From: Mobula hypostoma | Lineage: Eukaryota | Length of the DNA stretch: 64,000 bases | Reading direction: 5' to 3' | Assembly: GCF_963921235.1 (NCBI RefSeq) | Contig: NC_086108.1 | Location: 88,662,001-88,726,000 of the forward strand | Part shown: piece by piece, positions 18,459 through 63,096 of the stretch | Layout: each line of letters starts with the position of its first letter | Numbering within the stretch: the stretch's first letter is position 1 | Notes under the pieces: generated by a model | What the model was told of the DNA's origin: nothing | What the model saw: the letters and a program-made list of their open reading frames with translations, nothing else | Databases searched by the model: none | Translations under genes and position numbers: made by a program

Positions 18459-19965
18459 GTTTCAATGTTAAACGTAACGTTTCTCCCCAGCAGAAAGTAA
18501 ACAAGGTTAAATCAGCAACCCCTAAAAACACACATAAAATGGACAGTATGTCAAATGGACGATTCCCTACCATAAACATTTTAACATTATAAGCACCAGC
18601 GGAGTAGGCGAAAAGCAAGGAAAGACTGTTACATTGAACGGCAGCAACACCAGCCCCAGCTACGCTCAACTAATTTCCTCCCAAAGGGCCGTTGGCTTGA
18701 GAAACGTTAAATTAACGGCGAGCTGGATTCAGTAACAGCCACTGGTTGATTGGTGCAGGCGCAGTAGGTTAACATTATCACTCAAACCACTGACTTCATG
18801 GCTACTGCGATCTACAGGGGGAGCGATCACTCCCCATCGCAGCCTCTGTGGGACAGTTTGTACGAATATAAATATAGGAGATTCTGCAGATTCAAACATT
18901 CAGAAATTATCAACGTATGTATGCAGCTTACACCCCTGAGATTCGATACTGGAAATCCAGAGTAATATACACAAAAATGCTGGAGGAACTCAAAAGGTCA
19001 GGCAGCATCTATAGAGAGGAAAAAACAGACCGTTTGCCTGTCTCAGCCCGAAACTTCGACTGTTTTCTATTTTCCATGGATGCTGCCTGACCTGCCGAGT
19101 TCCTCTAGCACTTCTTGTGTGTGTTGCTCTGGATTTCCAGCAACTGCAGATTTTCTCGTGTTTGTGACCTTTTGCCTGACCTGCTGAGTTCCTCCAGCAC
19201 TGTGTGTGTATCGTTCTGTACGACCACACCGCTGAATTGTGGACAACTCCCACCAATCCCTTACACCCACTCGGGCTCTCTCCATCTTCTGACCCCCTCC
19301 AGCACACCCTAATCCAATACTCATCATGAGATCTTTCTCTACCCTCTGACATGCCCCATACTAATCCCGAGCCTTCTAAATCCCCTGACCCTCTCAACTC
19401 ATATCGACTTCTCAGTATACCCCTGAATCAATCAATAGTCATTCGCGGTTCAATCTATTCTCTGACCATCGCTTCCCACCCTTACCCAGCACCGGGCTCT
19501 CTCTACCCTCTAATTTCCAAGTGCATCCCTCCCCAGCTCTCTGATTCCCTCTCACACACTCATCACGGGCTCTTTCTACCCTTTGATCCTCTTTATCTGC
19601 CTCCCGCCGTATTCACCCAGGGTTCTCTTTGCTCGCTATCCCTCTTTTGTCATGCCTGTATTTTACTACTGTCACAAAACAAATTTCACGACTGTCAGTG
19701 GAAATAAACTCGATTCTGATATACCCTCAGACTCGAGCTCTCTGATCCCCACGTCCTTCGGCTTCTCTAGCACCTGCCAATGCCCCCTCCTCCCAGCCTT
19801 CCTCCCTCTCCATTGCCCCTCCACCCCCCACAACTCACTCCCAGTTCTGACCCGCCAAATTCTTGCCGTTGACCCAGTTCTTTCTGCTCTCTCCAGATAC
19901 CTTCCCGTTGCCACCTCAGATCATCCCGCTCTGACCCTCAAAGTCACCCAAAACCAACGCCTGAC

Positions 19966-21049: not shown

Positions 21050-23680
21050 TTCTTGTAAATTTAATAGCGCTTGCAGACCAACATAAGGTATATTAGTGCC
21101 ACGTACCAAGGTAGAGTGTGGAGTAAGAAGAGAGGAAGAATACCCACTAACCTCCCCCCATCCCAAATAACATCAATAAGTCTAATGCTTTTCAGAATGT
21201 CAAACACGCAGTTATATACATTACGATGGCAGAGATATCCTAACAAACTTTCCATGTTAAACTGTGTCTGTCCCAAAGATCTTAATTTAGCAATTAGACC
21301 TTACCTTCGCACCTTGTAGGAACTTCATTCAAGCAATATATGCTGCACCGTTTCTTGACAAGTGCACTCCCTACAAATGCCTCCATCGTGCTTATTACTT
21401 CTGAACAGGGAATTAGGCAATGGAGTATGTTGAATAAGTACACATACATGTAAGTATAACTTCTTTCCTTTTATACCCATCTCCCAGTTGAGTTCCCATT
21501 GTCTTCTGAATTTTATATAAATACCATCCTTTCTTTTTATCCCAACTTTGTTACCACCATGTTCAAATGTCTTTTTAATTATGGCTTTCACCTCCCCTTT
21601 ATGGAAAGCCACCACTACATTTACAAATGTACATTCTTGGTAAGTGATTGCCTGGCTAGAATGTCTGCCACCTTGTTTTCTTCAACCCCAACATAGACTT
21701 TGTCTGATGATCTTCTCTTAATAGTCACCTGAAACTTTGGAACATAAACAGAAATACCTGAGTAACCTGTCACTGGAACCCTTGAAAGTGTGGAAGAAAA
21801 ATAGTAAGACATTGTGACGAATGTTAAGGGGTTAATGACCTTCTTCTAGTATGTGAATTCAAAGTCTGTAATCGCTTATCTGCAACTAATGTACACTGTG
21901 TGACTGAAATGTGCTTTGTAGGCAGGATGGGAAAATAACTATGTCTGTGCTTCCTTGTTCTAAGAATCATCACATGTCTGCGCTTGGGAAAGCCTGATAT
22001 ACTGTCCTGAGAACTAACACTTAAGAAAATGTATAACCACTCGAGGACATATGGTGCAACTTCGCTATTCTAACGAGTTGTAGTTGAAGTTCCCTCTTTC
22101 AGATTTAAGCGCTTCTTGTCACGTACGCCTGGGGTATAAATAAGAGTGTAATCCATTGTTGAGCAGGGCTACGGAGCTCCATTTAGCAGTCTGGGCTCTC
22201 CATGATACCATGTAATAAAACCCTTTAGTCTGGAGCAATTCTCTGAGTCGGCCTGATCTATTCTGTCTGCTGCTCCTGAGATTTTTATTCCGCAACAGAA
22301 AGATCTATATAAATATGCAAGAAGCTATAATATCTGCCTTGCATATATTGCTGAACTTCCTGTGCCACTATTTAGAATCAACCTTCATCTTGATCTTTTC
22401 TTGAAGACTTCAATCAACCACAGGTAAAACCATAGAGGAGTGACCGAAAGGGCTACACTGGGAACATATTCCAAATTCTTGCCATGCCCTCTTCTAGTTG
22501 CTGCTATCGGGAAGAAGGTACAGGAGCCTCAGGACCGACACCTGTTCAGGAACAGTTATAACCCCTCAACCATCACGTTCTTGAACCAGAGGGAATAAAT
22601 TCACTCAACTTCACCTGTCCCATCATAAACTTCTCCCTCAACTTATGGACTCAATATTTATTCATCTATCTATTTATTTATTTAGCATTTGCACAGTTTG
22701 TTCATTCTGCACCTATGTTGTTTGTCCATCCTGTTGGGTACGATCTTTCACTGATGCTATTAAGTTTCTTGGATATTATGAATATGCCCACTTGAAAATG
22801 AATCTCTGGGTAGTATATGGTAACATATACAGGTAAGCACTTAGATAATAAATTTATTTTGAACGTTAAACAACCCCAATTTTGTGTCCACTCATTTCCC
22901 ATCCACTAAAACTGAAGACCTTACAAATGCAGTGCTCCCAGTGCTCTACTAATGTTGCCATTATTGGATGACCAACTTTATATCCTCTTTGTTAACCCAA
23001 TTATCTATTGTTAACTGTAAACTGTGTAAATGTAAAGATATTCCATTTCTACCAGTAATGCTGAATTTGGGGATGATTTAATAGCACCACAACATAATCT
23101 CAAAGGTTGAGCTTGAACTTCATCTAGGGGCTTTAAGACTGTTGGTGAGGCTGACCCAAAAACGAAACATCCATAGTCTGAATAAAGCAGTATACATTTG
23201 ATTAAGTGACCTTGCACCCCATCACATCCAAATAAGCACCTGAGCACATTAAGGGCTTTACTATACATCTCTAGAATTCTATTCATATACACCTTCCATG
23301 TTACTCTTGCGTCCGTCCACGTACTTAGAAACTTTACTACTGACTCTTGTTTAAGAGATTTAACAAAGAACTTGAGGTCAATTGTAGGTAACACACACAA
23401 AATGCTGGAGGAATTCAGCAAAGTTTCTCCAGCATTTTGTCTGCATTACTTGAATTTCCAGTATCTGCAGATCTTCGCTTGTTTGTGAACAATTGTGGGT
23501 GTAATGTTCCTTTTAGAAAAACAAATAACTTGAGTCTCTTCAACAGATCATTAAAACCCCCACCGACGTCCCCATTCTTCTACTTCATTAATAGCTGCCT
23601 GCATTTTCCTAACTATAATCCTGCTTCTCTTCCACACCACACTATTGTCAGGATATAACAATTTAGAATTGTCTGAGCCA
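21050..23680 (-). mobile_element. Degenerate Nimb/I-clade LINE with RT, RNase H and zinc-knuckle remnants
   Basis: LCCGAIKSSP.SALLVE, LHIY(I)D.S|K.PVTG (RNase H), VGVEENKVADILARQSL and C..C...ETVQHILLE remnants. The 3' end at about 21050-21130 resembles Nimb tails. Interrupted by younger insertions. Confidence 0.75.
21789..22297 (+). mobile_element. Solo LTR (509 bp)
   Basis: TG...CA ends with an imperfect terminal inverted repeat, 5-bp TSD GAAAG (21784-21788 / 22298-22302), TATAAA at 22135-22140 and AATAAA at 22214-22219. Removing it rejoins the RNase H motif of the host LINE. Confidence 0.88.
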
Positions 23681-23699: not shown

Positions 23700-25920
23700 A
23701 TTAAGGTCATAGGTGGAAGAGGTAAAAGGCTGAAGAAAAAGGAATGTGGTAGGAGAGAAGAGTGGACTACGGGACAAAGTGAAGGAGGTGTGGCACAAGA
23801 GAGAGGTAATAGGCGGGTGAAGGGAAGGGAGGGGATACAAGGGGAATCAGAATAGGGAGTTGTAAAATAGAGAAAGGAGTTGGGGAAAATTACTGGAATA
23901 TAGATAAATCAATGTCTGGGAAATGGAAGAGATGCATGTGAAGACAGCAACGATGGTAGAGAAAGTTAACCCCAATTTTTTAAAGAAGGAGGATGGGTCA
24001 GATGTTCTGGAATGGGAAACCTCATCCTGAGAAATGATGTAACAGAGATGGAGGAAATGTGAAAAGGGAACAGCAATTTTACAAGTGACAGGGTGGGAAG
24101 AGGTATAGTGATGATAGCTATGAGAGTCGGTAGGTTTATAAAAGATATCAGTAGACAGTCTGTCTCCAGAAAGACTGAAAAAAGGGAGAGAAGTATAACT
24201 TACAGAGATAGACCTCACAGAGAAAGACCTAGTAAATTTGAGAGCAGGATGGAATTTGGAGGTAAATTGATGGCGAGCTCAACAGGGATTCAGGAAGTAA
24301 CACCAATGCAGTTGTCATATAGGGCAAAGAGTTGAGGTTTATCAGTGTAGGCTTGGAACACGGACATTCCCATAGCTGCCAAAAAGGCACACATAACTGT
24401 GGCCCATTTGGACACTTACAACTTGAATTTACCTTGGAACATCTGGACAGCAAAGATGTATACATAAGGATGCTCTTTATTGATTACGGCACAACACTTA
24501 GTACCATCACTCCTTCAAAACTAATCAGTAAGTTCCAAGACCTTGGCCTCAATACCACGTTGTGCAATTGGATCCTGGATTTCCTCACTTGTAGACCCCT
24601 ATCAGTTCAGATTGGCAGAAACATTCCCTCCACGATCTCCATCATAACAGGTGCACCACAGGGCTGTGAGCATAGACCGCTGCTCCATTTGCTTTACACT
24701 TATGACTGTGTGGCTAAGCACAGCTCCAAAACCATATTCAAGTTTGCTGATGACACCACTGTTGTGGGCTGTGTCAAAGGTGGTGGGATAAATCAGCATA
24801 CAAGAGGGAGATTGAAAATTTGGCTGAGCGGTGTTATAACAATAACCTCTCACCCAATGTCAGCAAGCTGATTGTAGGCTTCAGGAGAGGGAAACCAGAG
24901 GGCCATGAGCCAATCCTCGTTGGAAGATCAAAGGTGGAGAGGGTTAGTAACACTAAATTGCTGGGTGTCACTATTTCAGAGGATCTATCCTGTACCCAGC
25001 ATGTAAATGCAATTGTGAAGAAAGCATGACAGTGCCTCTTCTTCCCTAGAAGTCTGCGGAGATTCGGCATGACATCAAAAACTTTGACAAACTCTATGGA
25101 TGTGTAGTAGAGAGTATATTGACTAGCTGAATCATGGCCTGGTATGGAAAGACCAATGCGTTTGAATGGAAAATCCTACCAAAGGTAGTGGATTCGGCCC
25201 AGTACATCACGGATAAAGTCCTCCCAACTATTGAGCACATCTACATGAAACGGCTGTCAGAGGAAAGTAGCATCCATCATCAGAGATCCTCACCACCCAG
25301 GCCAAGTTCTTTTCTCACTGATGCCATCAGGTATAAGAGCATTAGGACTTGCACTACCAGGTTCAAGCACAGTTACTACCCTACCCCTGAACCATCAGAT
25401 TTTTTAAAAAAAGGGGATAACTGCACTCACACCCACCCATTGAATGATCCCATAACCAATTATCTCACTTTAAGGGCTCTTTATCTTGTTATTGCATGTT
25501 CTCATTATTTTTTGCTATTTAATTATATTTGCATTTGCACTGTTGTCTTCTGTATCCTATTTGATCTTTCATTGATCGTGTTTTAGTTACTATTCTATAG
25601 ATTTGCTGAGTATGCCCGTAGGAAAGTGATTCTCAGGGTTACATATATGTACCCTGATAATAACATTTATTTTAACTTTGAACTGGGGGAGGAGCTGAAA
25701 GAGAAATTGTTGAATGCAAGGGCCGGTTCCACCAGAAGGAGGAGGGTGGTGGTGGAGGGGAACTGGTTAGGGCTGTTGTCTAGAAAGAAGCAAAGAGCTT
25801 TAAGACCTTCTTGACGGGACATAGAAGTGTAGAGGGATTGGATATCCATGGTGAAAATTTGGTGAGCAGGGCCAGGGAACTGAAAGTGGTGGATTGATCG
25901 AGAGCATGTGAAGTGTCACA
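23700..25920 (-). mobile_element. Penelope-like element RT remnant, interrupted by a Rex-like LINE; its 3' part continues at ~20790-21050
   Basis: MDIQSLYTS, LAFNNFSF and TDIFYKPTDSHSY..YTSSHP..CK.A.PFS motifs, typical of Penelope-like RT. Confidence 0.85.
24335..25680 (+). mobile_element. Rex1/Babar-like LINE, 5'-truncated
   Basis: ORF 24332..24871 has RT motifs (RMLFIDY, TGAPQG, FKFADDTTVVG); a 3' tail is present. Confidence 0.87.
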
Positions 25921-26949: not shown

Positions 26950-27703
26950 AATCATAGAAACATAGAAACATAGAAAATAGGTGCAGGAGTAGGCCATTCA
27001 GCCCTTCGAGCCTGCACCGCCATTCAGTATGATCATGGCTGATCATCCAACTCAGACCCCTGTACCAGCCTTCCCTCCATACCCCCTGATCCCTTTAGCC
27101 ACAAGGGCCATATCTAACTCCCTCTTAAATATAGCCAATGAACTGGCCTCAACTGTTTCCTGGGGCAGAGAATTCCACAGATTCACCACTCTCTGTGTGA
27201 AGAAGTTTTTCCTAATCTCGGTCCTAAAAGGCTTCCCCTTTATCCTCAAACTGTGATCCCTCGTTCTGGACTTCCCCAACATCGGGAACAATCTTCCTGC
27301 ATCTAGCCTGTCCAATCTCTTTAGGATTTTATACGTTTCAATCAGATCCCCCCTCAATCTTCTAAATCCCAACGAGTATAAGCCTAGTTCATCCAGTCTT
27401 TCATCATATGAAAGTCCTGCCATCCCAGAAATCAATCTGGTGAACCTTCTTTGTACTCCCTCTATGGCAAGGATGTCTTTCCTCAGATTAGGGGACCAAA
27501 ACTGCACACAATACTCCAGGTGTGGTCTCACCAAGGCCTTGTACAACTGCAGTAGTACCTCCCTGCTCCTGTACTCGAATCCTCTTGCTAAAAATGCCAG
27601 CATACCATTCGCCTTTTTCACCACCTGCTGTACCTGCATGCCCACTTTCAATGACTGGTGTATAATGACACCCAGGTCTCGTTGCTCCTCCCCTTTTCCT
27701 AAT
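26950..27703 (-). mobile_element. Young CR1 3' end, near-identical to 58280-59015
   Basis: The ORF 27052..27651 protein is almost identical to the C-terminus of 57640..58926; (TTTCTATG)n tail. Confidence 0.93.
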
Positions 27704-28575
27704 CCTGCTTGTCAGTACCTTCAGTTGAACTTTGTCTTTTTGTATGTTTCCCACCAGCCGTCAGTCTGTGGTGCCAAAGGCTGAAATAGATTTCTAATCA
27801 ATAAGGCAATCAAGACTTATGGGGAAAGAGCAGAAAGGGGACTTGAGGAATGTCAGATGAATCATGATTACTGGGGCAGATTTAAGCAGCTGAATGTCAT
27901 AATTCTGTTCCTACTCCTACTTCTTATTGTCTTATGGTATAGGCTATACAGCCCTACTTGATTGCGTTGCTTCTATCTTCCATATAAGTAGCAATCCACA
28001 CCTAATCCCAGGTATCTTCTCTATTCCTGTATGATATTTCTATATTTTTACACTATATCGGCTATTTTAGTCATAAATTCAGCAGTTCATTTCTCAGAAG
28101 CATAGCTGTGTAAAGTGAGTTTCTTTTTGGTCTCTCTTTCTCAAATCTCATCATATATCAAAATGAATAGGATATAAAAAAACAGGCTATTTGAACAAAG
28201 AGATGCACCGTATAGTTTATATTCCACATAAGTAATCTCCCACTCTATTTACCCTTTGTGCTATCTAATCTATGTCAATAAAGAAATGTGTTTCTGCATT
28301 CAGATTGGTTACTCAGTTACCTTCTGCTTTGGCAGCAATGATTTCATTAAAACTCTTACACATTTTCAAGTTCAAGTTTCAAGTTTAAATTTAATTGTTA
28401 TTCAACCATACATGAATATGGTCAAATGAAACAGAGTTCCTCCAGGGCCAAGTTGCAAAATGCATTATCAATAGCACACTGCACGTAGTACATAGCACAT
28501 AGTGCAAATAGAACATATGGTTATGATTTCAAGAAAACATGTAGTCACAAAGAAAAAAAATAATATAGCCCAAGT

Positions 28576-43880: not shown

Positions 43881-44323
43881 GCAATACATCACAAAATGCT
43901 GGAAGAAATCAAGTCAGCCAGCATCCAGAGAGGGGAGTAAACAGTCAATGTTTCGGGCTGAGACCCTTCATCAGAGCTGGAAAGGAAAGAGGAAGATGCC
44001 AGCGTCAGATTCCTTCCTGTTCAGCCCTTTACTGCTTCCAACTATCACCTCCCAGCCTTTTACTTCAACCCCCATCCATTCTCTTTCCTCCCACCTGGTT
44101 TCACTTGTCACCTGCCAGCTTGTATTCCTTTCACTCCCCCCCCCCACTCCATCTTCTTATTTTGGCTTTTGACCCCTTCCTTTCCAGTTTTGATGAAAGG
44201 TCTCAGCTCAAAACATTGACTGTTTGCTTCCTCCATAGACGCTGTCTGACTTGCTGAGTTCCTCCTGTATTTGCCGTGTGTTACTTAAAATTTACAGTAT
44301 TTGCAGAATATCTTGTGTTTAAG
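43881..44323. mobile_element. Penelope-derived element with two inverted hammerhead-like motifs
   Basis: Inverted arms; motif on the minus strand at ~43943-43978 (CUGAUGA AGGG UCUCAG CCC GAAAC AUU) and a degenerate plus-strand copy at ~44185-44222. Imperfect 11-bp TSD TTTATG(T/C)TATA. Confidence 0.8.
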
Positions 44324-44740: not shown

Positions 44741-46394
44741 CAATGCCTATAAAACATATTCACCACCCCCACCCCTTGAGAGTTTTCATGTTTTATTGTT
44801 TTACAACATTGAATCACAGTGGATTTAATTTGGCTTTTTTCACACTGATCACAGAAAAAGACTCTTTCGTGTCAAAGTGAAAACAGATCTCAGATCTCAA
44901 CAAAGTGATCTAAATTAATTACAAATATAAAACACAAAATAATTGATCGCATAAGTATTCACCCCTTCAAGTCAATATTTAGCAGATGCACCCTTAGCAG
45001 CAATTACAGCCTTGAGTCTGTGAGGATAGGTTTCTACCAGCTTTGCACATCTGGACACTGCAATTTTTCTCCATTCTTCTTTACAAGACTGCTCAAGCTC
45101 TTTCAGATTGCATGAGGTTCATGAGTGAACAGCCCTGTTCAAATCCAGCCACAAATTCTCAATTGGATTGAGGCCTGGACTCTGAATGGTCACTCCAGGA
45201 CATTAACTTTGTTGGTTTTAAGTCATTCCTGTGTATCACTGGCTTTATGCTTGGGGTCATTTCTTGCTGGGAAAAAGAAATCTTCTCCCAAGACGCAGTT
45301 CTCTTGCAGACGGCATCAGGTTTTCCTCCAGGATTTTCCTGTATTTTGCTGCATTCATTTTAATCTCTACCTTCACAAGCCTTCCAGGGTCTGCTGCAGT
45401 TAAGCATCCCCACAACATAATGCACCCACTGCTATGCTTCACAGTAGGGATGGTGTGTTTTTGATAATGTGTGGTATTTGGCTTATGCCAAACCAAGCGT
45501 TTAGTCTGATGACCAAAAAGCTCAATTTTGGTTTCGTAAGACCATAGAACCTTCTTCCAGCTGACTTCAGAGTCTTCCAGATGCCTTGTGGCAAACTTTA
45601 GCCAAGGTTTCATGTGTGTTTTTTTCAAAGTGGCTTTCTCTTTGTCACTCTCACATAAAGCTGCAACTGGTGAAGCACCCAGGCAACAGTTGTTGTCTGC
45701 ACAGTCTCTCCCATCTCAGCCACTGAAGTTTGTAACTCCTTCAGAGTTATCATGGGTCTTTTGTGGCCTCCCTCAATAGTCCGCTTCTTGCACGGTCACT
45801 TCGTTTTTGAGGACAGCCTGCTCTAGGCAGATTTACAGTTGTGCCATATTCTTTCCACTTTTTGATGATTGACTTAACTGTACTCCAAGGGATATTCAGT
45901 GACTTGGAAATTTTCTTGTATCCATTTCTGGACTTGTGCTTTTCAACAATCCTTTTGCGGAGTTGTTTGGAGTGTTCTGTAGTCTTCATGGTGTAGTCTT
46001 TGCCAGGATACTGACCCGCCAGTAGTCACACCTTCCAGACACAGGTATATTTTTACTGCAATCATCTGAATCAATTTGACTGCACACAGGTCTCCAAAAA
46101 CAGATGTCCATTTAACTAATTATGTGATTTCTAAAACCAACTGTCTGCACCAGTGATGATTTGGTGTGTCATATTAAAGTGAGGTGAATATTTATGCAAT
46201 CACTGATTTTGTGTTTTGTATTTGTAATCAATTTGGACCATTTTGTGGAGATTTGTTTTTACTTTGATATGAAAGAGTCTTTTTCTGTTGACCAGTGTCA
46301 AAAAAGCCAAATTATATATACAGTGATTCAATGTTGGAAAACAATAAAACATGAAAACTTCCAGAGGGGTGGTGAATACGTTTTATTGGCACTG
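44741..46394 (-). mobile_element. Full-length Tc1-family DNA transposon (IR/DR type) with a defective transposase (~45989 to 44972)
   Basis: ~220-bp terminal inverted repeats starting CA(G/A)TGCC, TA duplication (44739-40 / 46395-96), paired-type HTH (GYKKISKSLNIPWSTVKSIIKKWK), VLWS(Y)ETK and IMLWGC motifs. Frameshifts are present. Confidence 0.95.
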
Positions 46395-48742
46395 TATGTA
46401 TGCAGTACACAACCCTGAAATTCGTCTTCCCCACAGACAGTGAGAAAACAAAGAACCATGGAACCTACCCATTTAAAGGAAAAGATCAAACATCAAACCC
46501 CTCCCCAAGTGCAACAAAATCACCCAAACAGTAACAAAAAAAAAGAGCGAAAACACAGAACATAAAACACAAACTCAAAAGGCATATTTCAGTACAGCGT
46601 TCCTTACCTGCGGGCCACTCTGATTCAAAAATCGCCCATGAGTAGTAACAAAAAAAAGTGACCAGAACAAGAACTAGAACTAGAACACATCAAAAGTCTG
46701 AATTAGAGTCCATATCTACAACCTGCATCAATTAAACCTTGCTCCGGGACCATCCACAGACGGCATCAAGGGAGAAAGAGGTCACTCGAATGCAAGGACC
46801 CTCCCCCAGGAATAGCATGTGAGAGAAAACGAGACACCGCCATCTTCAAATGAACGAGAGACTGGTAGATGGTGCTGAATGCTCGCTCGCCTTCCACACC
46901 CGTCTCTGATGATTTTGATCTTCCTCAACACTTTACTCAGTGAGATTGGCAGGAAGTGGAGTTGATCATGGGCTCGCGCCCCACCTTCTGGCTTCCTGGC
47001 CTCCATGCTGCCTTGTGAAAGATTTTCGGAGAGAGCAAAGCACCAGATCACCCAACTGGCCTGAAATCACACCACCAGAATGTAGATTACAGGCTCTAAC
47101 AATAGCAGAACCGTATCTGAAATAGAAAGAAGATGATAGAAAAGAAGTGAAAAGAATTTCTTCAGGACCCATCTTGAGGATCTCGCTTTTGGTAGTGTAG
47201 TTTGCTGGCGTCATCTTCCTGCCTTCTCCTCTTAACGTTTGGTGCCTAGACTAATTCTCAACAGTTTTAATTCAGAATCAGAATCAGGTTTATTATCACT
47301 GGAATGTATTGTGAAATTTGTTAATTTAGCAGCAGCAGTTCAATGCAATACATAATACTGAAGAAAAATAATAATAAATAAATAGGTAAATCAATTACAA
47401 TATATGTATGTTGAATAGATAAAAAATTGTGCAAAAGCAGAAATAATATGTTAAAAAAGTGAGGTAGTGCTCAGGGGTCCAATGTCCATTTAGGAATTGG
47501 ATGACAGAGGGGAAGAAGCTGTTCCTGAATCGCTGAGTGTGTGTTTTCAGGCTTCTGTATCTCCTACCTGATGGTAACAGTGAGAAAAGGGCATGCCCTG
47601 GGTGTTGGGGTCCTTAATAATGGATGCTGTCTTTCTGAGACATCGCTCCTTGAAGACGTCCTGGGTATTTTGGAGGCTAGTACACAGGATGGAACTAACT
47701 AAATTAACAACCCTCTGCAGCTTCTTTCAGTCCTGTGCAGTTACCCCCCGCCATACCAGACAGTGATGCAGCCTGTCAGAATGCTCTCCACAGTACGTCT
47801 ATAGAAGCTTCTGAGTGTTTTTGTTGACATACCAAATCTCTTCAAACTCCTAATGTCTGGCCTTCTTTATAGTTGCATTGATATGTTGGGACCAGGTTAG
47901 ATTCTCAGAGATCTTGATACCCAGGAGCTTGAACCTGCTCACTCTCTCCACTTCTGATCCCTCTATGAGGATTGGTGTGTGTTCCTTTGTCTTACCCTTC
48001 CTGAAGTCCAAGATCAGCTCTTTCATCTTACTGACATTGAGTGCCAGGTTGTTGCTGCGACACCACCCCACTAGTTGGTATATCTCACTCCTGTATGTCC
48101 TCTCATCACCACCTGAGATTCTGCCATCAATGGTTGTATCATCAGAAAATTTATAGATAGTATTTGGGCTATGCCTAGACACACTGTCAACTAACTTCTC
48201 TACAAAGTCTGAAGAAGGGAACATTTGACTAAAGTCTTGAAGAAATAAAATCAATTGTTGTGGGGAAAATAGTTATTTTTGATTGTGATTGGGATTTCAC
48301 AGACACTCTACTCCGACCACCTCCAAAGTAATTCAGTCATTAAAGGTATCAAAGTTTTTAGGTTAATTAATTACATTGTCATGAACAATGGGTTGAATGA
48401 GCACAGGGTTGGATAGACATTAATGATGCAAATATGGTAATAAATTATTGCAGATGTGAATGGATTTTATTTAGAAGAAAAAAACACATCCCATGGATTT
48501 TTTCCTTCTATTTTGCTTTCCTTGACATTCAAAAGCTGATGTGACAGGCTTATTTCAGCTTTTGAACTGGTCACCTGTGAAAGCCTGGGATGAACCTCTC
48601 ACTGATTTTCCTGTCCACTTGACAGGAAGTTGCCTGGCGCCCTTCTCGTCACTCTTGGTCAACTACTGAATACAGTAATGATGACTGCTTGTTTGTGGGC
48701 TGTTTGCTTCCCCTATCTCAAACTGTTTTCCCTTGGTTGCAG

Positions 48743-48891
48743 TTACCCTCACCGTGAGGCAGTCTGGAACTTCACTCCAAGGATTTTTTATACAAGCACG
48801 AGATGCTGATGACCTAAATGCTGGACCTCTTGGGAACTTTACTTTGATTGATGATCAGAACTCCCAGCTCTTGACGTGTGGGGGTGTGAAA
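48743..48891 (+). CDS. FRRS1: FRRS1 coding exon 2 (VTLTVRQSGTSLQGFFIQARDADDLNAGPLGNFTLIDDQNSQLLTCGGVK)
   Basis: Reeler motif GF.IQAR...G.F.L...SQLLTC. Acceptor TTGCAG|, donor AAA|GTGTGT. Phase 1 in, phase 0 out. Confidence 0.93.
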
Positions 48892-49795
48892 GTGTGTATG
48901 CCATCTTGTGAATTTTAAGACTGGTGCAAAGTTACTAGACCAGGAAATTTTTTTTTTTATTCATAATCGACTGTAGGACATAAATCTCCTGTTGCTGGTG
49001 GGATTTGAATATGTTCCTCCAGATCATTGTCTTTAGTTTGCTAATTCAGTCCCCAACCTCCATGCAACCATTCAAATTGTAGTAGAGATCATCATATGGT
49101 AATCAAATAGATCATCATAAGTCTGTTGAGGCAAGTAAAGAAGTAAAAAGGCAAGAAGTTCATTCACATACCTCTTAAAGAAAGTACCGTGTTTTTGAAA
49201 TTTTTGATTTACCCAGAGTAGAGCAATCTCTAGATGTCTCAGTTCTTCATGACAAATTTGCGTTCTCCAATTTTTTTTTTTTGCTTTAATTTTCCCTTTT
49301 TTTCTGATGTAAGATTCCCTTAATCTATATCAATGATCGCATAACAAGTAACATTTGGCTATCAAAAAATTTAAACCTCATTCATACCAAAAATGTCAGT
49401 TCTGACTTGCGAAACAACTAGCTTTTATGAAACACTTCACCAAGAAACTGTGGCATTAAATGGGCAACTCTTAAACTGCATTTTTTTCTCATATTTCAAG
49501 ACCTGGGCATCCTTGGCAAAGTTAGCATTCAATTGTCCTTGAATTAAATGATTTGCAAGCCCATTTCAAAGGACATTTATGAAAGAACACATTTGTGAGT
49601 CGAGTTTCATCCAAGTCCAGACTGGTCAAGGATGGCTGATTTCCTGCCCTGAAGGTCATTGGGTTTCTACAGCAATCTGATAATTTGATGTTCATCATCA
49701 CAGTCCACAAAATTGTTAACTGGATTTAAATTCCAGGTCTATCATGATGTGAATTGAACTCTGGGAGCCTGAGTCACTATTACAGTAATTTAACT

Positions 49796-50001
49796 CACAA
49801 ACATGAGAAAATCTGCAGACACTGGAAATCCAAGACAACACACACAAAATGCTGGAGGAACTTAGCAGGTCAGGCAGCATCTATGGAGGGGTATAAACAG
49901 TCCTGATGAAGGGTTTCAGCCTGAAACGTTGACTGTTTATACCTCTCCATTGATGCTACCTGATCTGCTGAGTTCCTCCAGCATCTTGTGTGTGTTGCCA
50001 T
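49796..50001 (+). mobile_element. Penelope-derived fold-back element with a hammerhead motif
   Basis: ~67-bp inverted arms (49836-49902 / 49931-49997) and a 12-bp TSD AGTAATTTAACT (49784-49795 / 50002-50013). Confidence 0.85.
49895..49938 (+). ncRNA. Minimal type I hammerhead ribozyme motif (intact core)
   Basis: AAACAGUC-CUGAUGA-AGGG UUUCAG CCU-GAAA-CGUU-GACUGUUU: helix I, conserved core, helix II, palindromic ACGU helix III and a GUU cleavage triplet at 49928-49930. Confidence 0.7.
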
Positions 50002-50799
50002 AGTAATTTAACTGCCGTGCCAACATGGAGATTTTATATCTCCTAAAACTTTAAATATATCTTTTCAAGTGTTCCCTCATAAAGGTCAGGATCATGGTCA
50101 TGGACACTCTCCTGAGGCTAGGACCCTTAAGCGTCTGCTGGTGATCTTTGCCATCTATGATAGTTTACTGCTGTATTAGGGAAGTCACGCAAACTTCCGC
50201 CCACAAGGTGATTTTATCTACTTCCTCTTCAGTCTGCAGGACTAGGTAGTAGAGGAATGATCAATTGCCTGCATTGGCTTCCCCACATTGTGGCAATCAG
50301 GATTATTCCTTCATTGAGACATCCCTACCTGTAGTCCTGTATAGTTTACATGATGCCCATCCTGACCTCTACTGCTGTCTGGGTGGAATTTTCCTATCCT
50401 CCCTGTGACTACTTTGGTTTTCTCCAAGGACTCTCAGAGAGTTTTTCCCACTCCCCAATGATATATAGGTTGGTAGGTTGATTGGTCATAGTTAATTGCT
50501 CCTGGTGTGAATGGGAGGGTTAGGATTTGTGTAAACGGGTGATGGTTGCCATGAACTGGATGGGCCAAAAGGCCTGTTTTTATGATGGACTACTTTATGA
50601 CTATACCTCTAAGCTGTCTCCAGCAGTATTCTCTTTCACGAACCTGTCCAAGTCCCAGTCCCACTGAACCTCCGGAGAACTCTTCTCCATACCTCTCCCA
50701 CAACTTCCCATTCCTCACACTCTCACCAAACCCACTACTCTGACCATCAGCAGCACTTGTTTCTAGTGAGAGAGAACATTGCCTGCAGAGATTACATCT

Positions 50800-51990
50800 G
50801 CTGTTTCTGCTTCTGCTTGGTACTGCGCAAGCACTTCTGGATGGCTGTTATAACGCGCAGTCGATGTGAACGGCGTGGGAGTTAAATTGTTAAATAAGCT
50901 TTTTTGACTAGGTCCCCTAAATTGATTTGATTTAGTCTATCCTTAAAAATGTTAATGTCAGAAATACTGCGCAGGTCTGGCGGCAGAAGATTCCACTCTC
51001 TTGTTGATCCTGGGTAGAGGGAGTACTGGTAGCAAATCTTATTGAATGAAAGAGTTTCCTATATGTGAGGTCCAGTTTGCTGTCGAGTTGAACTGACTCT
51101 GTGACGAATTTGGATGTTTGATGGAGTAATGTTGTGACCTTCTTTGAAAATGAAAATTAACTGTAGTTTAATATGTCGGTTTTCAAGTGGTTCCCACTGA
51201 AGTTTAGAGAGCATGTAGGTGACACCAGATTTCCTGCTGTAATCATTTAACACAAAACGAGCAGCACGGCATTGGATTTTCTCAATGGACTTCTGATTGT
51301 TAGCTTGATGGGGATCGCATATGGCCGTGCAATACTCAGGCTTTGGATGGAAGAGTGTCTTGTATGCCATGTCCTTGACGGATTTACTACGAGTGGAGGT
51401 TTCTTCTCAGGATACCCAGTATTTTATTTGCTTTGGCTGTAATTTGATTGATGTGAGATGACCAGTTAAGATCCTTGCTAATTTCAACACCAAGATATAG
51501 GTGGTGAATGACTGTTTCAAGAATCTGTCCATTCATGTTATATGTCGTGTTGATTGGTTTAACTTTGTGACTGACATGCATAGCTGTGGTAAACCATATT
51601 TTTTATGTTGTAACCGGGTTAACTGTCTGGACACGCCCCTCTGCTGACTGCCCCTGTGGCTCCTCACACACGTCCCTGAATAAAGGCGATTTCGCCCTGC
51701 TCCTCCCCCTCAGACCAGGGACAGACACTCAGCATGGGGGTCACGTTTTACTGCGAATAAAAGCCTTTCAGTATTTACCCTACTTCAGTCGTTTGGAATT
51801 ATTGAAGGCGCTTCAATAGCATAACATTTAGATGAGTTGAAGGACATTTGCCATTGAGACTCCCATTGACATAATGAATCAATATCGTTTTGCAACAGCT
51901 GAGCATTTTGGTCATTTTTTTATCTCACAGTAGATTGTGCAGTCATCTGCAAAAAGTCTGACTTCGGACTTGACTATATTGTTTAACATT
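50800..51990 (-). mobile_element. CR1-group LINE of a different lineage (RT C-terminal half plus 3'UTR), interrupted by a solo LTR
   Basis: RLFADDC, WQMSFNSSKCYAMHV, YLGVEISKDLNWSSHINQITAKANKILGILRRNL and IEKIQCRAARFV motifs; (AAGCAG)n tail. Confidence 0.82.
51585..51815 (+). mobile_element. Short solo LTR (231 bp)
   Basis: TG...CA ends, 5-bp TSD ATAGC (51580-51584 / 51816-51820) and two AATAAA. Excision restores KCYAMHV in the host LINE. Confidence 0.88.
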
Positions 51991-52208
51991 GGGACATTAG
52001 ATCAGCAGAGAACTGTGTTGGTATCAGAACACTGGAGAACGCAACAGCACTGTTCTGTAGACTGCAATTGGAGTTGTCTTCTGTGCAGCAGTAGAAGTCT
52101 CACAATGGTGCTTAAACAGCAAAAACAAAAAGGTGTGGAACAATTCTTAACTTTCTATATAATCTGCTTAATACACAACTTATGTTGAGCATTGTTTCTC
52201 TTCCATAG

Positions 52209-52303
52209 GATTCAACAGTCAGTCACAAAAGCTCATCAGGAAAGCACACAATTGAGGTCCTTTGGAACCCACCTATGCCAAAACCAGATCACATCCAATT
52301 CCT
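52209..52303 (+). CDS. FRRS1: FRRS1 coding exon 3 (DSTVSHKSSSGKHTIEVLWNPPMPKPDHIQF)
   Basis: Reeler VSH...K..I.V.W..P motif. Acceptor TTCCATAG|, donor CCT|GTAAGC. 95 nt, phase 0 in and phase 2 out. Confidence 0.93.
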
Positions 52304-53672
52304 GTAAGCATTACAGTGCAATTAACAGACAACATTCACTGGATATAAGACTGTTGTAAGCCAGCCACATCTTTTTCACAGAGAGTAATTGTGGCATGTC
52401 TAAGATGTAAATGTAACATACAAATTAGTGAATGTATGGGTGCAACTTCTAAAGCTTAGGAGATGATTAGCCTCATTTTAAGTACATTGAACAAATAATG
52501 TGCAAAGGGTCAAGAAACATTTGCTAGGGACCTGTTATTGTGAATTATATTGGATTTTGAGTCCTACTCTGTTGTGCATGTAGATTGAACAGGTCTAATC
52601 TTGTAAAAACATTAACCCTCGTACACAGAAAGTCACATGAGTTGAGCAGTGAGTCTCAGGTCCAGGGTGGGATGGGGGAAGGCGAGGAGACTTGTAATGT
52701 GACAAGAAGCCTTGAGCAATCAGTTGCTTGACATCAGCATGTGTTATGATAAAGATCGGTAGGAGGGTTGAGATGGAAGTTGATATTACTTGGGTTAGGC
52801 AGCATGTTGGTAGTGGTGTTGTGGGGAGGGATGGGGGAGAATTGATCGGTGTCCTCTAGTTTGGTACTCATGAAGAGTCATTTCCACAGATTTTGAAGAA
52901 GTTCTCTGATATTCTTACAGGCAGGGGTTGTGGGATGGGGACCTAAAAGTGAATGTGAGGTAGGACATGGGTGCCAAAAAGGGCAATCTATTGTGACACA
53001 TTAAAGTGAACCTTCCTGTTACAGTTAGGCCCCAAATATTGCTGAAACAGGCCTCACAACCCTCTGTATGAATGGTTTGTTCTAGCTGTGACTGGACATG
53101 TAAAAGAAAATTGCAATTCTTTGCATCCATTTATGCATGCCTGGGCCCTTGTGCATGATTTCTCACGATCAATGTAACAGTGACAACATCCAAATGTGCA
53201 TTGCTCTGTAGGCAGCTCCGTTGTGCATATAGACTGAAACACATAAATGAGATTCATGGTAATCTCTGAGGAAAAAAAACTCTTCCTTCTTAATGTGGTA
53301 TTTTAAAAGTAGTACTGAGGATGAGGTTGTTAGGACAGAGATGAATACATTTTGGGCTTGAATTTAATATCATTGATCCACCCGCTGTCCAGGTGCAGAG
53401 AGGGGTTGTACAGCACCTTGCTGATTGCTTGATTACAGGCAGATGTCAAGTCAGGTTAATGAGATAACTTAACACTTTTGTATTCAAAATACTGTTCCAC
53501 TCACTGTACTTTGGGTGTAGATCAATAATGAAACATTATCCAGCTCCCCTTCCTATCCATCCCACCATCTCCCCATTGCTAAATTTATAGCCTGGTTTAA
53601 CTTTTAACCTTAAAACATAGCACAAAAGTAATTAATTCTTCCTTAATTTAAACTTTTTTTTTTGCTTTTCAG

Positions 53673-53817
53673 GGCCACAGTGGTTCAGAGGTTCAATATT
53701 TACTGGGTCAAAATACGTGGTCCAATAATTTCTCAAGTAAATGCTTCTTCTTTGTCACAACAACTTGCAACTGAATCTCCAGCAAAACTACCAACAACCA
53801 TCCAGCTTGCTAAACCA
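53673..53817 (+). CDS. FRRS1: FRRS1 coding exon 4 (ATVVQRFNIYWVKIRGPIISQ...LAKP)
   Basis: End of reeler domain (ATVV....YWVKI.GP.ISQ) plus an S/T/P-rich linker. Long polypyrimidine tract then CAG|, donor CCA|GTAAGC. 145 nt. Confidence 0.93.
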
Positions 53818-54589
53818 GTAAGCACTTGTCAAATAGATTAAGGATTTGGGTTCACAGTTCAAGATGAAGGGTTGATATGGGATGTGTAAAAATAGTATTC
53901 ATTTATGTTTATAGTGGACAAATGGATAATTTACTGAATTTGACTTATTCTCAGGCCTTCCAGATGAGAAGCAAACCTTTATTTCATGGGCTTAATATTG
54001 TGGGAATCCTTCTCACATTTATTTAATTTGTGTAGGCATATGTATATCAAACTAGAAACCTCAAGCCCTATAGACTTAGAAAAGCATCTATTTGAAGCCA
54101 ATAATGTAAAATCTATGTAACCATCAAGCATTAAAGCCAGGACCAACAAGCGGCAGGACAGCTTCTTCCACCAGGCCATCAGGCTGATTAATTCACACTG
54201 AAACAATTGTATTTCTAAGCTATATTGACTGTTCTGTTGTATATCTTACTGTACATACTCTTTATTACTATAATTTGCACATTGCACTTTCAGACAGAGA
54301 CATAACGTAAAGACTTTGACTCCTTACGTATGTGAATTCAACTAATTCAAGTTAGTTCATGTTCTTTTGAAAATCTTGAGTTACTTTCTAAAGACAAATT
54401 TTTACATAAAATGGTGCATTTTAGATAAAGGGTTTGTGTCAGATTTCCAAGAAATGAAATGGATTCCAATTTCTTAGTCAGGATATTTTATATATATAGT
54501 GACTTCCATCTCTGGTAGTTGAGCATTTTAAGCAATTTTCTGATAGGAAACAAACAATCTTGACCATTTAATGTTGAATATTACTCTTC

Positions 54590-55265
54590 AGGAGATCTGG
54601 ACTATTCCAGTGGTGTTTAGTATTGTGGCTTTCTGGAGATTTACATGAATATTGCTGTGTAGCCCTAATCATTCAATGCTGTCGTGTAGTGACTTTGGGA
54701 TGATACCAGTTGTAGATATTACTATTGGAACAATGTAATTGTAATTGGAACCCTGGTCATGTTCCATAGTCTTTCAATTTACTTTTTTAATTCAGCATAT
54801 TGCAGGTGTTGTTCACTTACTGATTCTGAAAGTTGTGTGTATTTGGAATGGCTAGATCTATTAAGTAAGTTGTTATTGCTTGTTTATCCTGTAATATTAT
54901 ATCTGGATGGTTATTATGAATTGTCCCATCTGTAATAATGGATTGATTGTAATATAATTTGTGGGACTCTGACTCTAATTCTAAAAGTGGATCAGGTATA
55001 GTTTGTTTTATGAGTTTGTATTTTAAAGCAAGATTTTGGTGAATGATGTTTGCCACTTGATTGTACCTGTGTAAGTAATCAGATTAAGTTAAACTACTCC
55101 AGAATCCTGTAATGTGTTGGATTGTTTCTGGTTTCTCTCGACATTTTCTGTATTTATCACCTTGAATTAGTTGGACTTCTATGATGTATTTTTGATTTTT
55201 TTTGTGTTAACCACCTGTTCCTATATTGCCACAAGGAACTTTTCTGTTTCTGGGAAGAGATTTCC
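54590..55265 (-). mobile_element. R4/Dong/Rex6-like retrotransposon fragment (zinc knuckle and restriction-like endonuclease)
   Basis: CREKPETIQHITG...YLHRYNQVANIIHQNL and HNNHPDIILQDK...YLIDLAIP match the CCHC, RH and PD..D RLE motifs. Confidence 0.75.
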
Positions 55266-57576: not shown

Positions 57577-59015
57577 TCGATTTTTAAAAAAGGAGGGAGA
57601 GAGAAACCGGGGAATTACAGACCGGTTAGCCTAACGTCGGTGGTGGGGAAACTGCTGGAGTCAGTTATCAAAGATGTGATAACAGCACATTTGGAAAGCG
57701 GTGAAATCATCGGACAAAGTCAGCATGGATTTGTGAAAGGAAAATCATGTCTGACGAATCTCATAGAATTTTTTGAGGATGTAACTAGTAGAGTGGATAG
57801 GGGAGAACCAGTGGATGTGGTATATCTGGAATTTCAAAAGGCTTTTGACAAGGTCCCACACAGGAGATTAGTGTGCAAACTTAAAGCTCATGGTATTGGG
57901 GGTAAGGTATTGAGGTGGATAGAGAATTGGTTAGCAGACAGGAAGCAAAGAGTGGGAATAAACGGGACCTTTTCAGAATGGCAGGCAGTGACTAGTGGGG
58001 TACCGCAAGGCTCAGCGCTGGGATCCCAGTTGTTTACAATATATATTAATGACTTGGATGAGGGAATTAAATGCAGCATCTCTAAGTTTGCGGATGACAT
58101 GAAGCTGGGCGGCAGTGTTAGCTGTGAGGAGGATGCTAAGAGGATGCAGGGTGACTTGGATAGGTTGGGTGAATGGGCAAATTCATGGCAGATGCAATTT
58201 AATGTGGATAAATGTGAAGTTATCCACTTTGGTGGCAAAAATAGGAAAACAGATTATTATCTGAATGGTGGCCGATTAGGAAAAGGGGAGATGCAACGAG
58301 ACCTGGGTGTCATTATACACCAGTCATTGAAAGTGGGCATTCAGGTACAGCAGGCGGTGAAAAAGGCGAATGGTATGCTGGCATTTATAGCGAGAGGATT
58401 TGAGTACAGGAGCAGGGAGGTACTACTGCAGTTGTACAAGGCCTTGGTGAGACCACACCTGGAGTATTGTGTGCAGTTTTGGTCCCCTAATTTGAGGAAA
58501 GACATCCTTGTCATAGAGGGAGTACAAAGAAGGTTCACCAGATTGATTCCTGGGATGGCAGGACTTTCATATGAAGAAAGACTGGATGAACTAGGCTTGT
58601 ACTCGTTGGAATTTAGAAGATTGAGGGGGGATCTGATTAAAACGTATAAAATCCTAAAGGGATTGGACAGGCTAGATGCAGGAAGATTGTTCCCGATGTT
58701 GGGGAAGTCCAGAACGAGGGGTCACGGTTTGAGGATAAAGGAGAAGCCTTTTAGGACTGAGATGAGGAAAAACTTCTTCACACAGAGAGTGGTGAATCTG
58801 CGGAATTCTCTGCCACAGGAAACAGTTGAGGCCAGTTCATTGGCTATATTAAAGAGGGAGTTAGATATGGCCCTTGTGGCTAGGGGGATCAGAGGGTATG
58901 GAGGGAAGGCTGGTGCAGGGTTCTGAGTTGGATGATCAGCCATGATCATAATAAATGGCAGTACAGGCTCGAAGGGCTGAATGGCCTACTCCTGCACCTA
59001 TTTTCTATGTTTCTA
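57577..59015 (+). mobile_element. Young 5'-truncated CR1 with an uninterrupted 428-codon RT/C-terminal ORF
   Basis: ORF 57640..58926 is open, with [22 protein letters not shown] and SKFADD motifs. 3'UTR and TTTCTATG tail are present. Inserted within a Rex-like fragment. Confidence 0.95.
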
Positions 59016-59410
59016 TAAGCTAATGCCCAGGAATTAAAAACTGATGATTCTCTGCCAATTTCCCAGTGTAGACTGGTGCCTAATCGTTCCCTTCCCCTTG
59101 ATGAAGCCAACAATCCTTAGCTTTACAGTTGCTGAATGAGAGGTTCTTGTATCCTACCTCACTGCTGTACACTGACTCATCACTATCTGTGATTTGTCCA
59201 GTAACAGTGATGTCATCAATAAATTTGTATGTGGCATTGGAGCTGTGCTTAACCGCATCATTTGCTTATAGATTGTAGAGCAGGGTCTAAACACATAGTT
59301 TTGAGGTGCACCCATGTTAATGGTCAGTAACAATGAGATGTTGTTACCAATCCTCATTAATTGAAATCTGCTGATGAGGAAGTTGACAGTCCAGTTGCAG
59401 AGGGAGTACA

Positions 59411-59865: not shown

Positions 59866-60069
59866 AGGAGAGAAAATCTGAAGATGCTGGAAATCCAGGC
59901 AACACACACAATATGCTGGAGAAGCTCAGCAGGCCAGGCAGCGTCTATGGAAAAAAAGTACAGTCAAGGTTTCAGTCCTGCTGAAGGGTCTCGGCCTGAA
60001 ACGTCGACTGTACTTTTTTCCATAGATGCTGCCTGGCCTGCTGGGTTCTTCCAGCATTTTGTGTGTATT
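59866..60069 (+). mobile_element. Penelope-derived fold-back element with a hammerhead-like motif (59973-60010)
   Basis: Inverted arms; 16-bp TSD TCTTTAAGATTGATAA (59850-59865 / 60070-60085); CAGUC-CUGCUGA-AGGG UCUCGG CCU-GAAA-CGUC-GACUG. Confidence 0.85.
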
Positions 60070-60456
60070 TCTTTAAGATTGATAATGAGTTTGGATATGA
60101 TGGTTGTGATGAATGCTGAGCTATAGCCAATGAATAGCAGCCTGACATAAGTACTACTGTCTAGATGGAAAAGCCAGAAAAATAACTTCTGCTGTTGACA
60201 AATCTATGACCTGTAAGGTGGTGACGTGTCAGGCCAGTGGATAATGGAAAGATGAAATTAGGCTGGAACCAGTGGAAAATGGGAGTTGCAGCTGCAGTGG
60301 GGTCTGCAGGACTTGAGAGAGCAACGATAAGAGAAAATACACAGAAGGAGATTCCTAAGACTGGTGCCCAGCACATCTATATTTCAGCTTCATGTAAGGC
60401 TTGGAAAGTGTGGACTTTGTCATAAGTTCCTGATATTCCTTAATATCATAGTGTAT

Positions 60457-61413: not shown

Positions 61414-61596
61414 GTTAATGCTACAGACTGTGGTAATAAGAAATCCTGCCTGCGGAACCCCACCGGATGTGACCCTGAGCTCGACAGATTGTGCTTCTTC
61501 CTCTCGTTTACACCACAAGGCTCCTCTGTACTTTTTGAGTTGAGTGGACCATCTAATGGGTACATATCATTTGCCCTGTCTGATGACAAATGGATG
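61414..61596 (+). CDS. FRRS1: FRRS1 coding exon 5 (VNATDCGNKKSCLRNPTGCDPELDRLCFFLSF...FELSGPSNGYISFALSDDKWM), start of DOMON domain
   Basis: CG.KK.C.R.P..CDP and ELSGP..GY.SFALS.D.WM motifs. Acceptor GTTAG|, donor ATG|GTGAGT. 183 nt, phase 0 at both ends. Confidence 0.95.
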
Positions 61597-63096
61597 GTGA
61601 GTACTATTATTGCCCTGGATAAAAGTAATGACATTGATTATGCTAGCTGTTAAGAGTCCAGAGTCTGTGCCATCAATCCATTCACTTTAGGAGAATTTGT
61701 TTTTGTTGCCAGCACTAAATCCATGCAAAAACGTAAAGCAGCATTGGTTACTCGAACTTTAAGCATACATCTCTACCACTTTTCAGCTCAACTGTTGCCT
61801 CGCTCACCCTCTTAGAAACATAGAAACAGGCCTTTCAAATCAACGAGTCTGCACCAACCATAAAACACCCATTTACACAAACCTACATTAGCCCACTTAT
61901 TTTCATTCTCTCACATTCTCCACCTCTCATTTATACCCTTTCTTGCTTCAGAAAATATTCTCCAGTGTACTCCTGGCCTCCTATAACCTTAGGATCATCC
62001 AAAACCCCGCTGCCAATATCCTGAACTTCACCAAGCTTTCTTCACCTGCCACCTCTGATATAACATACACTGGTTCCTAATTAAGTAATACCTTGTTTTA
62101 AAGTTTGCCACTCTTCTCACCAAACCCCTTTGTGACCTTACTTCTCCTCACTTCTGCAATTTCCTCCAGTCACAGAACTCTTAGAGGTATTTGTACTTCT
62201 GCAAATCTGTCCTCTTGAGCATCTACAATGTAATTGCTCTACTATTAGTGCTCATAGCTTCAGCATCAAATATCCTCAAGATCCTGTGTTTCTTCCCCAG
62301 ATCGTTCTGCATTTCTATTCTTTTAAAAATCTTCAAAAAACCTAAATCCTAATGAAGGGTCTCAGTCTGAAATGTTGACTCTTTATTCCTTTCCATAAAA
62401 CTAAGCTCCTCCAGCTTTTTGTGTGTGTTACTCTGGAATTTCAGAATCTTCAAAATCTCTTGTGTCTCCATAAAACCTACCTGCCTGGTCATGTTTTTGG
62501 TCATCTGCCTGAAATATTTATGCATGATAACATTTCTAGGAAGTGCATTTGGGAGCTTGGCTTCATAAGGAAGCTGCTACTGGAAATAGTCGATGCTATA
62601 GTATGGCCAGAAAGAGCAGGAAGGATCCATCAGTCTCTAGTAAGACAGCTGTTGAACACAATGAGTTTGTCTGATTTTGTGGAACCTGTAGGTGAGCTTT
62701 TGTTTCTTAATGCTCCTTCAACTTATCTTTGGGAACCTCTTTGCTAGGACAGTTATTGAATATCAGGCACACTGTATATGACTGCCTAATGTAAGCTGGT
62801 GGAACTGATAGAGGAAAAATATTCTTCACCATTCTGAGCAAAATGCCAGGTAGGAGGCCTCAAAATCTTTCCTATTAGGGTTTTCAATCATAATAAAAAT
62901 AAGGGCATATTAAAATATACTGTTAATGGGAAAGAACAGTATACAAGGAGGCTAAGGACAAACACGTCTGCAATCCATTCTTAAAGCTTTATTTAATTTT
63001 GTCAGTGAAAGAACAAGATGCACAATAAAAAATGCAGCAAGCTGATTTGTTAGTATTGAATTTGAATCTCTACGTAATTAAAATCTTCTGTTTCAG

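Follow-up and report, generated by a model that had tools for sequence, protein, structure and literature searches.

Closest described systems

Endonuclease-bearing (EN+) Penelope-like elements (PLEs) of the Neptune clade leave insertions of a recognizable kind. As described in PMC8557442 and PMC3846280, a 5'-truncated copy lies adjacent to an inverted one, a tail of 30-40 bp is present on one side only, the target-site duplication (TSD) measures 8-17 bp, and the junction shows microhomology. The pseudo-LTR (pLTR) carries a hammerhead ribozyme, and the reading frame comprises a reverse transcriptase (RT), a Cys linker, and a GIY-YIG endonuclease. The insertion analyzed here and its parent element agree with this description in all of these features. 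The differences are that the copy is minimal (about 100 + 105 nt), that its junction lies on helix I, that a single hammerhead caps a stem, and that such pairs number, by extrapolation, about 1e5 in this genome.

The minimal hammerhead ribozymes of PLEs (Cervera and de la Pena 2014, PMC4209133) are of type I, with an extra nucleotide at 9/10.1, a helix I of 4-5 bp, and a loop-less palindromic 15.2-16.2. They are widespread as single motifs of truncated PLEs, opposite-strand pairs included, and in vitro the monomer was inactive and the dimer weak. The present motif is of the same build, whereas its helix II has 3-4 bp with a G.U closing pair, its triplet is GUU, and its helix I is artificially prolonged to 67 bp.

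With the Poseidon element PAc of Anolis (PMC11167929), the insertion would share two internal RT starts bounding the tail, an AT-rich target, nicking and extension of both strands, and a hammerhead not required for insertion. PAc belongs to another clade, and its reading frame starts inside the hammerhead, whereas the long frame of the present family starts in or just 3' of the tail. Run-off of cDNA at -32 with an extra G is not described for PAc in the available parts of that report. Non-LTR retrozymes (10.64898/2026.07.22.740005; PMC7229834) are likewise non-coding, carry type I hammerheads, and derive from PLE pLTRs; however, they form head-to-tail arrays with one hammerhead per unit (10.64898/2026.07.22.740005), while a single head-to-head pair with variable junctions is found here. 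In L1 twin-priming inversions (PMC4859970), two primings are also joined at a breakpoint and an untemplated 5' G, read as a copied cap in both L1 and SVA, marks a capped template. The first L1 priming takes place at the poly(A), whereas here both would be internal and the arms overlap, giving a hairpin.

Structure of the insertion and its host gene

The window is the whole stretch of 64,000 nucleotides from Mobula hypostoma (NC_086108.1, positions 88,662,001 to 88,726,000), and coordinates refer to it unless a locus is named. Positions along the element are counted from the hammerhead, with +0 as the first base 3' of the predicted cut site. The features of the locus are the following:

48743..48892, plus strand: upstream host exon (Reeler, FRRS1-like), boundaries read from AG/GT by eye
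49784..49795, no strand: left TSD copy, 12 bp, AT-rich, AGTAATTTAACT (repeat comparison, 100%)
49796..49835, minus strand: PLE tail, spanning about +68 to +107 relative to the cut site and confined to the left arm
49836..49902, minus strand: inverted (antisense) arm, pLTR +0 to +66
49898..49902, plus strand: inversion-junction microhomology of 5 nt, equal to the 5' strand of native helix I and complementary to its 3' strand
49903..49930, plus strand: minimal type I hammerhead core (motif definition of PMC4209133)
49931..49998, plus strand: direct (sense) arm, pLTR +0 to +67, reaching the tail-less 3' end
49999..50001, no strand: three bases unlike the family sequence and unlike the TSD, likely untemplated
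50002..50013, no strand: right TSD copy, AGTAATTTAACT (repeat comparison, 100%)
about 52209..52304, plus strand: downstream host exon, an exon-like frame with approximate boundaries

The insert consists of two pseudo-LTR ends of a Neptune-type PLE joined head to head. A first-pass annotation of the locus had described a 206-bp insertion with a 12-bp TSD and inverted arms of about 67 bp, which was confirmed: the 206 bp at 49796-50001 are bounded by exact TSD copies, and the arms 49836-49902 and 49931-49997 are complementary at 61 of 67 nt (91%, 6 differences). With A or T at 9 of its 12 positions, the TSD is the short duplication of an AT-rich target seen in PLEs. The right arm is in sense orientation and spans -33 to +68 without the tail; the left arm is antisense and extends from +0 to about +107 with the tail, a segment that intact elements have after the pLTR and that may be missing from the 3' ends of copies. 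The adjacent inverted, 5'-truncated copy and the one-sided tail of PLE insertions are thus both present. The A at 49899 is position -32, which we infer from end statistics to be the transcription start. RNA folding of the hairpin gave -125.7 kcal/mol (z -13.8), a stability reached by 0 of 200 shuffled sequences.

Within 48500-51500 no direct repeat of the 206-bp unit was found, which leaves a single head-to-head pair and not the tandem of a retrozyme. The copy belongs to an older subfamily, whose other members average 89% identity to their own majority sequence, and both of its arms carry a T>A change at +10 that occurs in 1 of 115 other copies. Contigs of another organism (X4, about 3.5% different) contain the left flank with 29 nt of the insert, and the last 8 nt with the right flank. 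A shared insertion is only hinted at by these spans, which fall under the 31-letter bar for bridging.

Domain searches identified a Reeler match at 48685-48915 (E 1.8e-8, above the cut-off) and a DOMON match at 61414-61650 (E 0.0014, below the cut-off), both on the plus strand. Further exon-like frames lie at about 53670-53820 and also downstream of the window. From the order of these domains, the gene is presumably FRRS1. The insert sits in an intron of about 3.3 kb 3' of the Reeler exon, and since the host exons are on the plus strand, the hammerhead motif is in sense orientation there. The placement in an FRRS1 intron given in the first-pass annotation is therefore borne out, for an FRRS1-like gene.

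The hammerhead motif and its state

Read from the sequence, the core comprises C3-A9 at 49903-49909, the extra A at 49910, the helix II strands 49911-49914 and 49919-49922, G12-A15.1 at 49923-49926, the loop-less palindromic ACGU (15.2-16.2) at 49926-49929, and H17 = U at 49930, with the predicted cut at 49930/49931. The earlier reading, a minimal PLE-type hammerhead of type I with all core nucleotides and a palindromic loop-less helix III, is accurate, including the extra base at 9/10.1; the core bases lie in the 28-nt loop and its flanks. The cleavage triplet is GUU, while the family state is GUC; T at H17, a CpG site, is found in 43% of 99 old-family copies and 5% of 56 young-family copies. 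GUU is among the listed cleavable triplets (PMC3138052), so the triplet alone does not kill the motif. Helix II is closed by G.U instead of the canonical G10.1-C11.1 pair, which is present in 50 of 99 old copies; G.U is the majority state of young copies (38/56, 68%).

Covariance models did not recover the motif: cmscan of 45000-55000 against Rfam (E<=10) returned five matches, none of them to hammerhead families. The matches to MIR2275 and mir-2007 were discarded, being far below gathering scores and reflecting the hairpin. A hand-written descriptor of the minimal hammerhead gave 42 matches in 1.4 Mb of genome, of which 40 were assigned by eye to the Neptune-type PLE family, and 0, 0, and 0 in three Markov controls.

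The idea that the arms extend helix I holds insofar as a 67-bp stem is present. The extension itself is the inversion, the native helix I measuring 4-5 bp, and it would favour the inactive monomer. During transcription the fold-back would fold into a monomer hairpin in the intron, while helix III needs a partner. A strand-swapped dimer, which activity would require, was calculated at -234.4 without helix III, compared with -238.4 for two monomers, and the ACGU duplex at -1.7. As these energies are close, the obstacle to swapping 67-bp arms would be kinetic and one of concentration.

A working ribozyme at the locus, as entertained in the first-pass annotation, found no support in the family sequences, which point to neutral decay without a 5'-end peak at the cut site. 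At all nine helix I/II pairs, paired counts in 155 copies equalled the shuffle means, so that covariation did not rise above shuffles. Core positions outside CpG show about the same conservation as the remaining positions (0.90 vs 0.875). The core is whole in 18 of 99 old copies, and the present copy is consequently not exceptional. The PAc hammerhead needed its own protein (PMC11167929). Judging from the sequence evidence, the hammerhead of the window copy is likely inert and likely does not cut itself.

The parent element

A protein search gave 26,949 candidates, of which 150 were scored. Open frames of 1043 codons were present in 6 of 13 fetched loci (L121-L126), and in four of these (L121-L124) the same end of hammerhead, arm, and tail stands directly before and after the frame, that is, the pLTR arises from a partial tandem and holds the hammerhead, as in EN+ PLEs. 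The L121 frame contains DKG at residue 448, YIDD at 689, CxxC..YIG at 950, and EH..HF at 974; it is the single frame of an EN+ PLE, with RT followed by a C-terminal GIY-YIG/CCHH endonuclease. Between RT and endonuclease, at residue 910, lies the Cys motif C-x4-C-x2-C, and a zinc-finger-like motif in this place is a mark of Neptune shared with Nematis (PMC8557442). By the motif criteria of that source, the parent is an endonuclease-bearing PLE of Neptune type. Pfam matches of the 1043-codon frame to RVT_1 (E 3e-5) and GIY-YIG (E 5e-4) were both below curated cut-offs; four of five partial frames had no Pfam match, and a PDB sequence search with the full frame returned 0 matches. Upstream, longer copies contain a 3' UTR rich in pyrimidines and, beyond it, sequence coding for GIY-YIG, and old-family ends like the one studied here follow endonuclease-coding DNA in L107, L079, and L094.

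The young subfamily, with its uninterrupted frames in partial tandems (L121-L126; e.g., L121:3183-6311, plus strand), keeps the whole hammerhead core in 41 of 56 copies, mostly with G.U closing helix II, and may have been active recently. Another locus (L129:3552-6941, minus strand) has an open frame of 1130 codons in which an RT piece, which we take to resemble CR1/L2, is fused in frame to a 5'-truncated PLE frame, probably as a nested insertion. Decayed RT-coding pieces of a more distant PLE lie in the window at 23883-24422 and 25727-25885 on the minus strand, with 46% and 74% amino-acid identity, respectively, to the L121 frame.

Abundance and variation of head-to-head pairs

The frequency of such structures was estimated from 140 arbitrary 10-kb stretches of the genome (1.4 Mb), in which counts for single breakpoint positions are small. 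This sample contained 288 PLE ends, 278 of them away from stretch edges, and 42 different head-to-head pairs after removal of one duplicate from 43. Extrapolation gives about 715,000 ends and about 104,000 pairs genome-wide. The window itself has 11 repeat clusters of the family, mostly plain one-strand pieces. Three more fold-backs with other junctions occur at 59870-60074, 18945-19209, and 23390-23484; the first of these, which has a TSD-like repeat of 14 bp, is located in another intron further along the same host gene. A younger repeat forms an inverted pair of 743 bp at 26962-27704 and 58274-59016, 95.7% identical and about 31 kb apart.

Among the 42 pairs, 35 have one tail, 7 none, and 0 two, compared with 21.0, 11.1, and 9.9 expected (p 3e-5). 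A TSD was recognized in 15 of them, as against 0-1 in 20 shuffled controls, and junction positions vary from pair to pair. The exact junction 21-mer of the window copy occurs 43 times genome-wide, which is 0.5% of the 8,624 matches to the native context. Thirty of the 43 junction-sharing loci, the window copy included, were compared for tail side: the tail is on the left in 9, on the right in 12, on neither side in 5, and on both in 4. Two of these last four are spurious short alignments, while L143 and L150 seem to have a tail on both sides. No column separating left from right arms was found among the 30 loci. At four of five polymorphic columns, the two arms of a copy agree more often than expected (0.65-0.79 vs 0.42-0.58), and one column shows the opposite (0.46 vs 0.64); arm identity within a copy is 0.81 (n=22), slightly above the 0.78-0.80 between copies. 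A travelling unit predicts fixed ends and consistent differences between left and right arms; the data instead indicate formation at each insertion. The arms are offset by the one-sided tail and continue into an RT-encoding element, and classification as a MITE or DNA transposon was rejected on this basis.

Ends of copies and a putative transcription start

In the 1.4-Mb sample, 3' ends are bimodal, near +66 and +102. The 5' ends accumulate 4 nt before the hammerhead core: 54 of 278 fall at -34..-27, with the mode at -32, whereas the 71 positions that follow hold 85 together. Among the 42 pairs, the longer arm begins within -36..-25 in 25. Genome-wide, copies starting at A-32 are preceded by G in 1,337 cases and by A in 664 (ratio 2.0); the corresponding counts at a control position four bases further along are 101 and 236 (0.43), an odds ratio of 4.7. 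In the 1.4-Mb sample, starts at -32 have a preceding G in 8 of 15 cases, and starts at other positions in 17 of 107. Of 30 G-preceded loci inspected, 20 are plain insertions, 8 are inversions, and 2 are native copies that have mutated. For at least two loci, the G may derive from the target, in which case the cDNA would still need a matching extra base. The short copies L167-L196 start at A-32 with an excess of G at -33 and of T at -34 (13/20), which would agree with copying of the cap and addition of one more base.

Around A-32, the old-family sequence matches the initiator pattern YYANWYY. In Drosophila Penelope, the promoter lies within the pLTR (PMC2377424). The pile-up and the extra G suggest cDNA run-off at a capped transcription start at -32, although stalling of RT at the ribozyme fold remains a rival explanation of the pile-up. 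Spliced RNA was also considered and rejected, as the 80 nt upstream of the 20 plain G-preceded copies contain no common first exon; nothing is shared there, and 1 of 20 matches the PLE body. One copy beginning at -32 (L193) is preceded by PLE RT-region sequence, 92% identical to L121, as a possible template jump or nested insertion. In native copies (e.g., 44165-44190), helix I is immediately preceded by a pyrimidine tract and AG that resemble a splice acceptor, and the intron of Drosophila Penelope ends at the same spot (PMC4209133); no spliced copies were found among the 20 loci. Run-off ends of the present PLE family were not found among the openly listed papers on PLE inversions, start sites, cartilaginous-fish PLEs, and cap-derived G.

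On balance, the end statistics lean towards a model in which PLE RNA is capped and starts at A-32, and cDNAs initiated at the two tail sites in the 5' pLTR run off at its end, copying the cap. These "strong-stop-like" cDNAs would measure 100 and 135 nt, the cap appearing as an extra base; pairs on opposite strands would give fold-backs, and uncleaved RNA would be the template.

Formation of the fold-back

Very probably, the insert is a head-to-head pLTR pair that was made a single time, at insertion, from two short cDNAs, and that has been inert since. The order of events is derived from end statistics. The PLE endonuclease would nick both strands 12 bp apart, and each nick would prime RT inside PLE RNA, one at the tail-less site (+68) and the other at the tail end (+107), as expected from the insertion form of Neptune-clade PLEs (PMC8557442, PMC3846280) and from the two internal RT starts flanking the tail in PAc (PMC11167929). 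The first cDNA would run to the RNA 5' end at -32. Its run-off end would then anneal to the second, opposite-strand cDNA through 4-5 bases of helix I, the only nearby complement, and repair would trim and join both cDNAs. The hammerhead appears to cap a 67-bp stem because this microhomology is helix I. Run-off at -32 would explain the helix-I junction by microhomology, without cleavage.

It is doubtful that one cDNA primed itself via helix I and that staggered resolution of the hairpin by the endonuclease, at two sites, then left a tail on one arm. Self-priming has been proposed for palindromic PLE junctions (PMC3846280) and endonuclease-mediated resolution for the tail (PMC8557442), and the private +10 variant is common to both arms, which could, however, also result from gene conversion between them. 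Simple snap-back copying cannot supply the tail, as it sits on the arm opposite the one that bears the hammerhead, and internal RT starts at both tail borders were demonstrated in vitro for PAc (PMC11167929).

Rather unlikely is an origin of the left arm from the 3' product of hammerhead self-cleavage, which would make the junction a footprint of cleavage in vivo. The left arm does end exactly at the predicted cut site, and the junction is found repeatedly: in 43 exact matches, at 7 of 30 loci inspected, and at L042 of the arbitrary sample. The majority hammerheads of old and young subfamilies also differ at three places (N7, -33, and 11.1) by one-sided changes that are all free or pair-keeping, as expected if source elements keep the ribozyme. 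However, the 5-nt microhomology yields the same junction without cleavage, and 5' ends at -2..+2 (5 of 278, plus L042) are about at the background of 1.2 per position, compared with the 54 ends at -34..-27. Non-native bases just before the cut site were found in 76 cases genome-wide, as opposed to 5,016 native ones. Of the 30 of these inspected by eye, 7 were inversions at helix I and 5 were inversions of other kinds, about 13 were native copies with mutations or deletions, and about 5 were plainly truncated there. In the lizard PLE, moreover, no RNA-seq reads beginning or ending at the cut are reported and cleavage is dispensable, according to the available parts of PMC11167929.

A non-autonomous, retrozyme-like 206-bp unit, as in the first-pass annotation, that moves as a whole and self-cleaves, circularizes, or regulates FRRS1 pre-mRNA is hardly credible: despite the whole core, sense orientation, clean TSD, very stable hairpin, and numerous matches to the 206-mer over nearly its full length (40 of 4,611 candidates scored, the best of these at 85%), the unit has neither coding capacity nor an upstream promoter region, its junctions, arm lengths, ends, and tail side vary between copies (30 loci; 42 pairs for junctions), its exact junction is rare, the tandem array that defines non-LTR retrozymes (10.64898/2026.07.22.740005) is missing, covariation is absent at the nine pairs, a whole core is not rare, and the minimal motif showed little activity in vitro (PMC4209133).

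Significance

The insert is a known kind of PLE insertion leftover with a known ribozyme motif, and no new self-copying element. The locus itself is minor: pairs of this kind number roughly 100,000, and its ribozyme shows no sign of selection. It also calls for caution, since hairpin-capped "intact ribozymes" and apparent covariation between arms in such genomes stem from the insertion mechanism.

The formation of tandem and inverted PLE insertions has been named as unresolved (PMC8557442), and cutting by PLE hammerheads in vivo as an open question (PMC4209133, PMC11167929). The distribution of ends, with its peak at -32 and the extra G there, the lack of a peak at the cut site, and the single tail per pair, provides testable predictions for both questions from the genome alone. 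The added value is modest: the end statistics favour a capped start at -32 and speak against cleaved templates. If this is true, the stubs would allow the PLE start site, as well as the still unexplained inverted structures, to be read from the genome.
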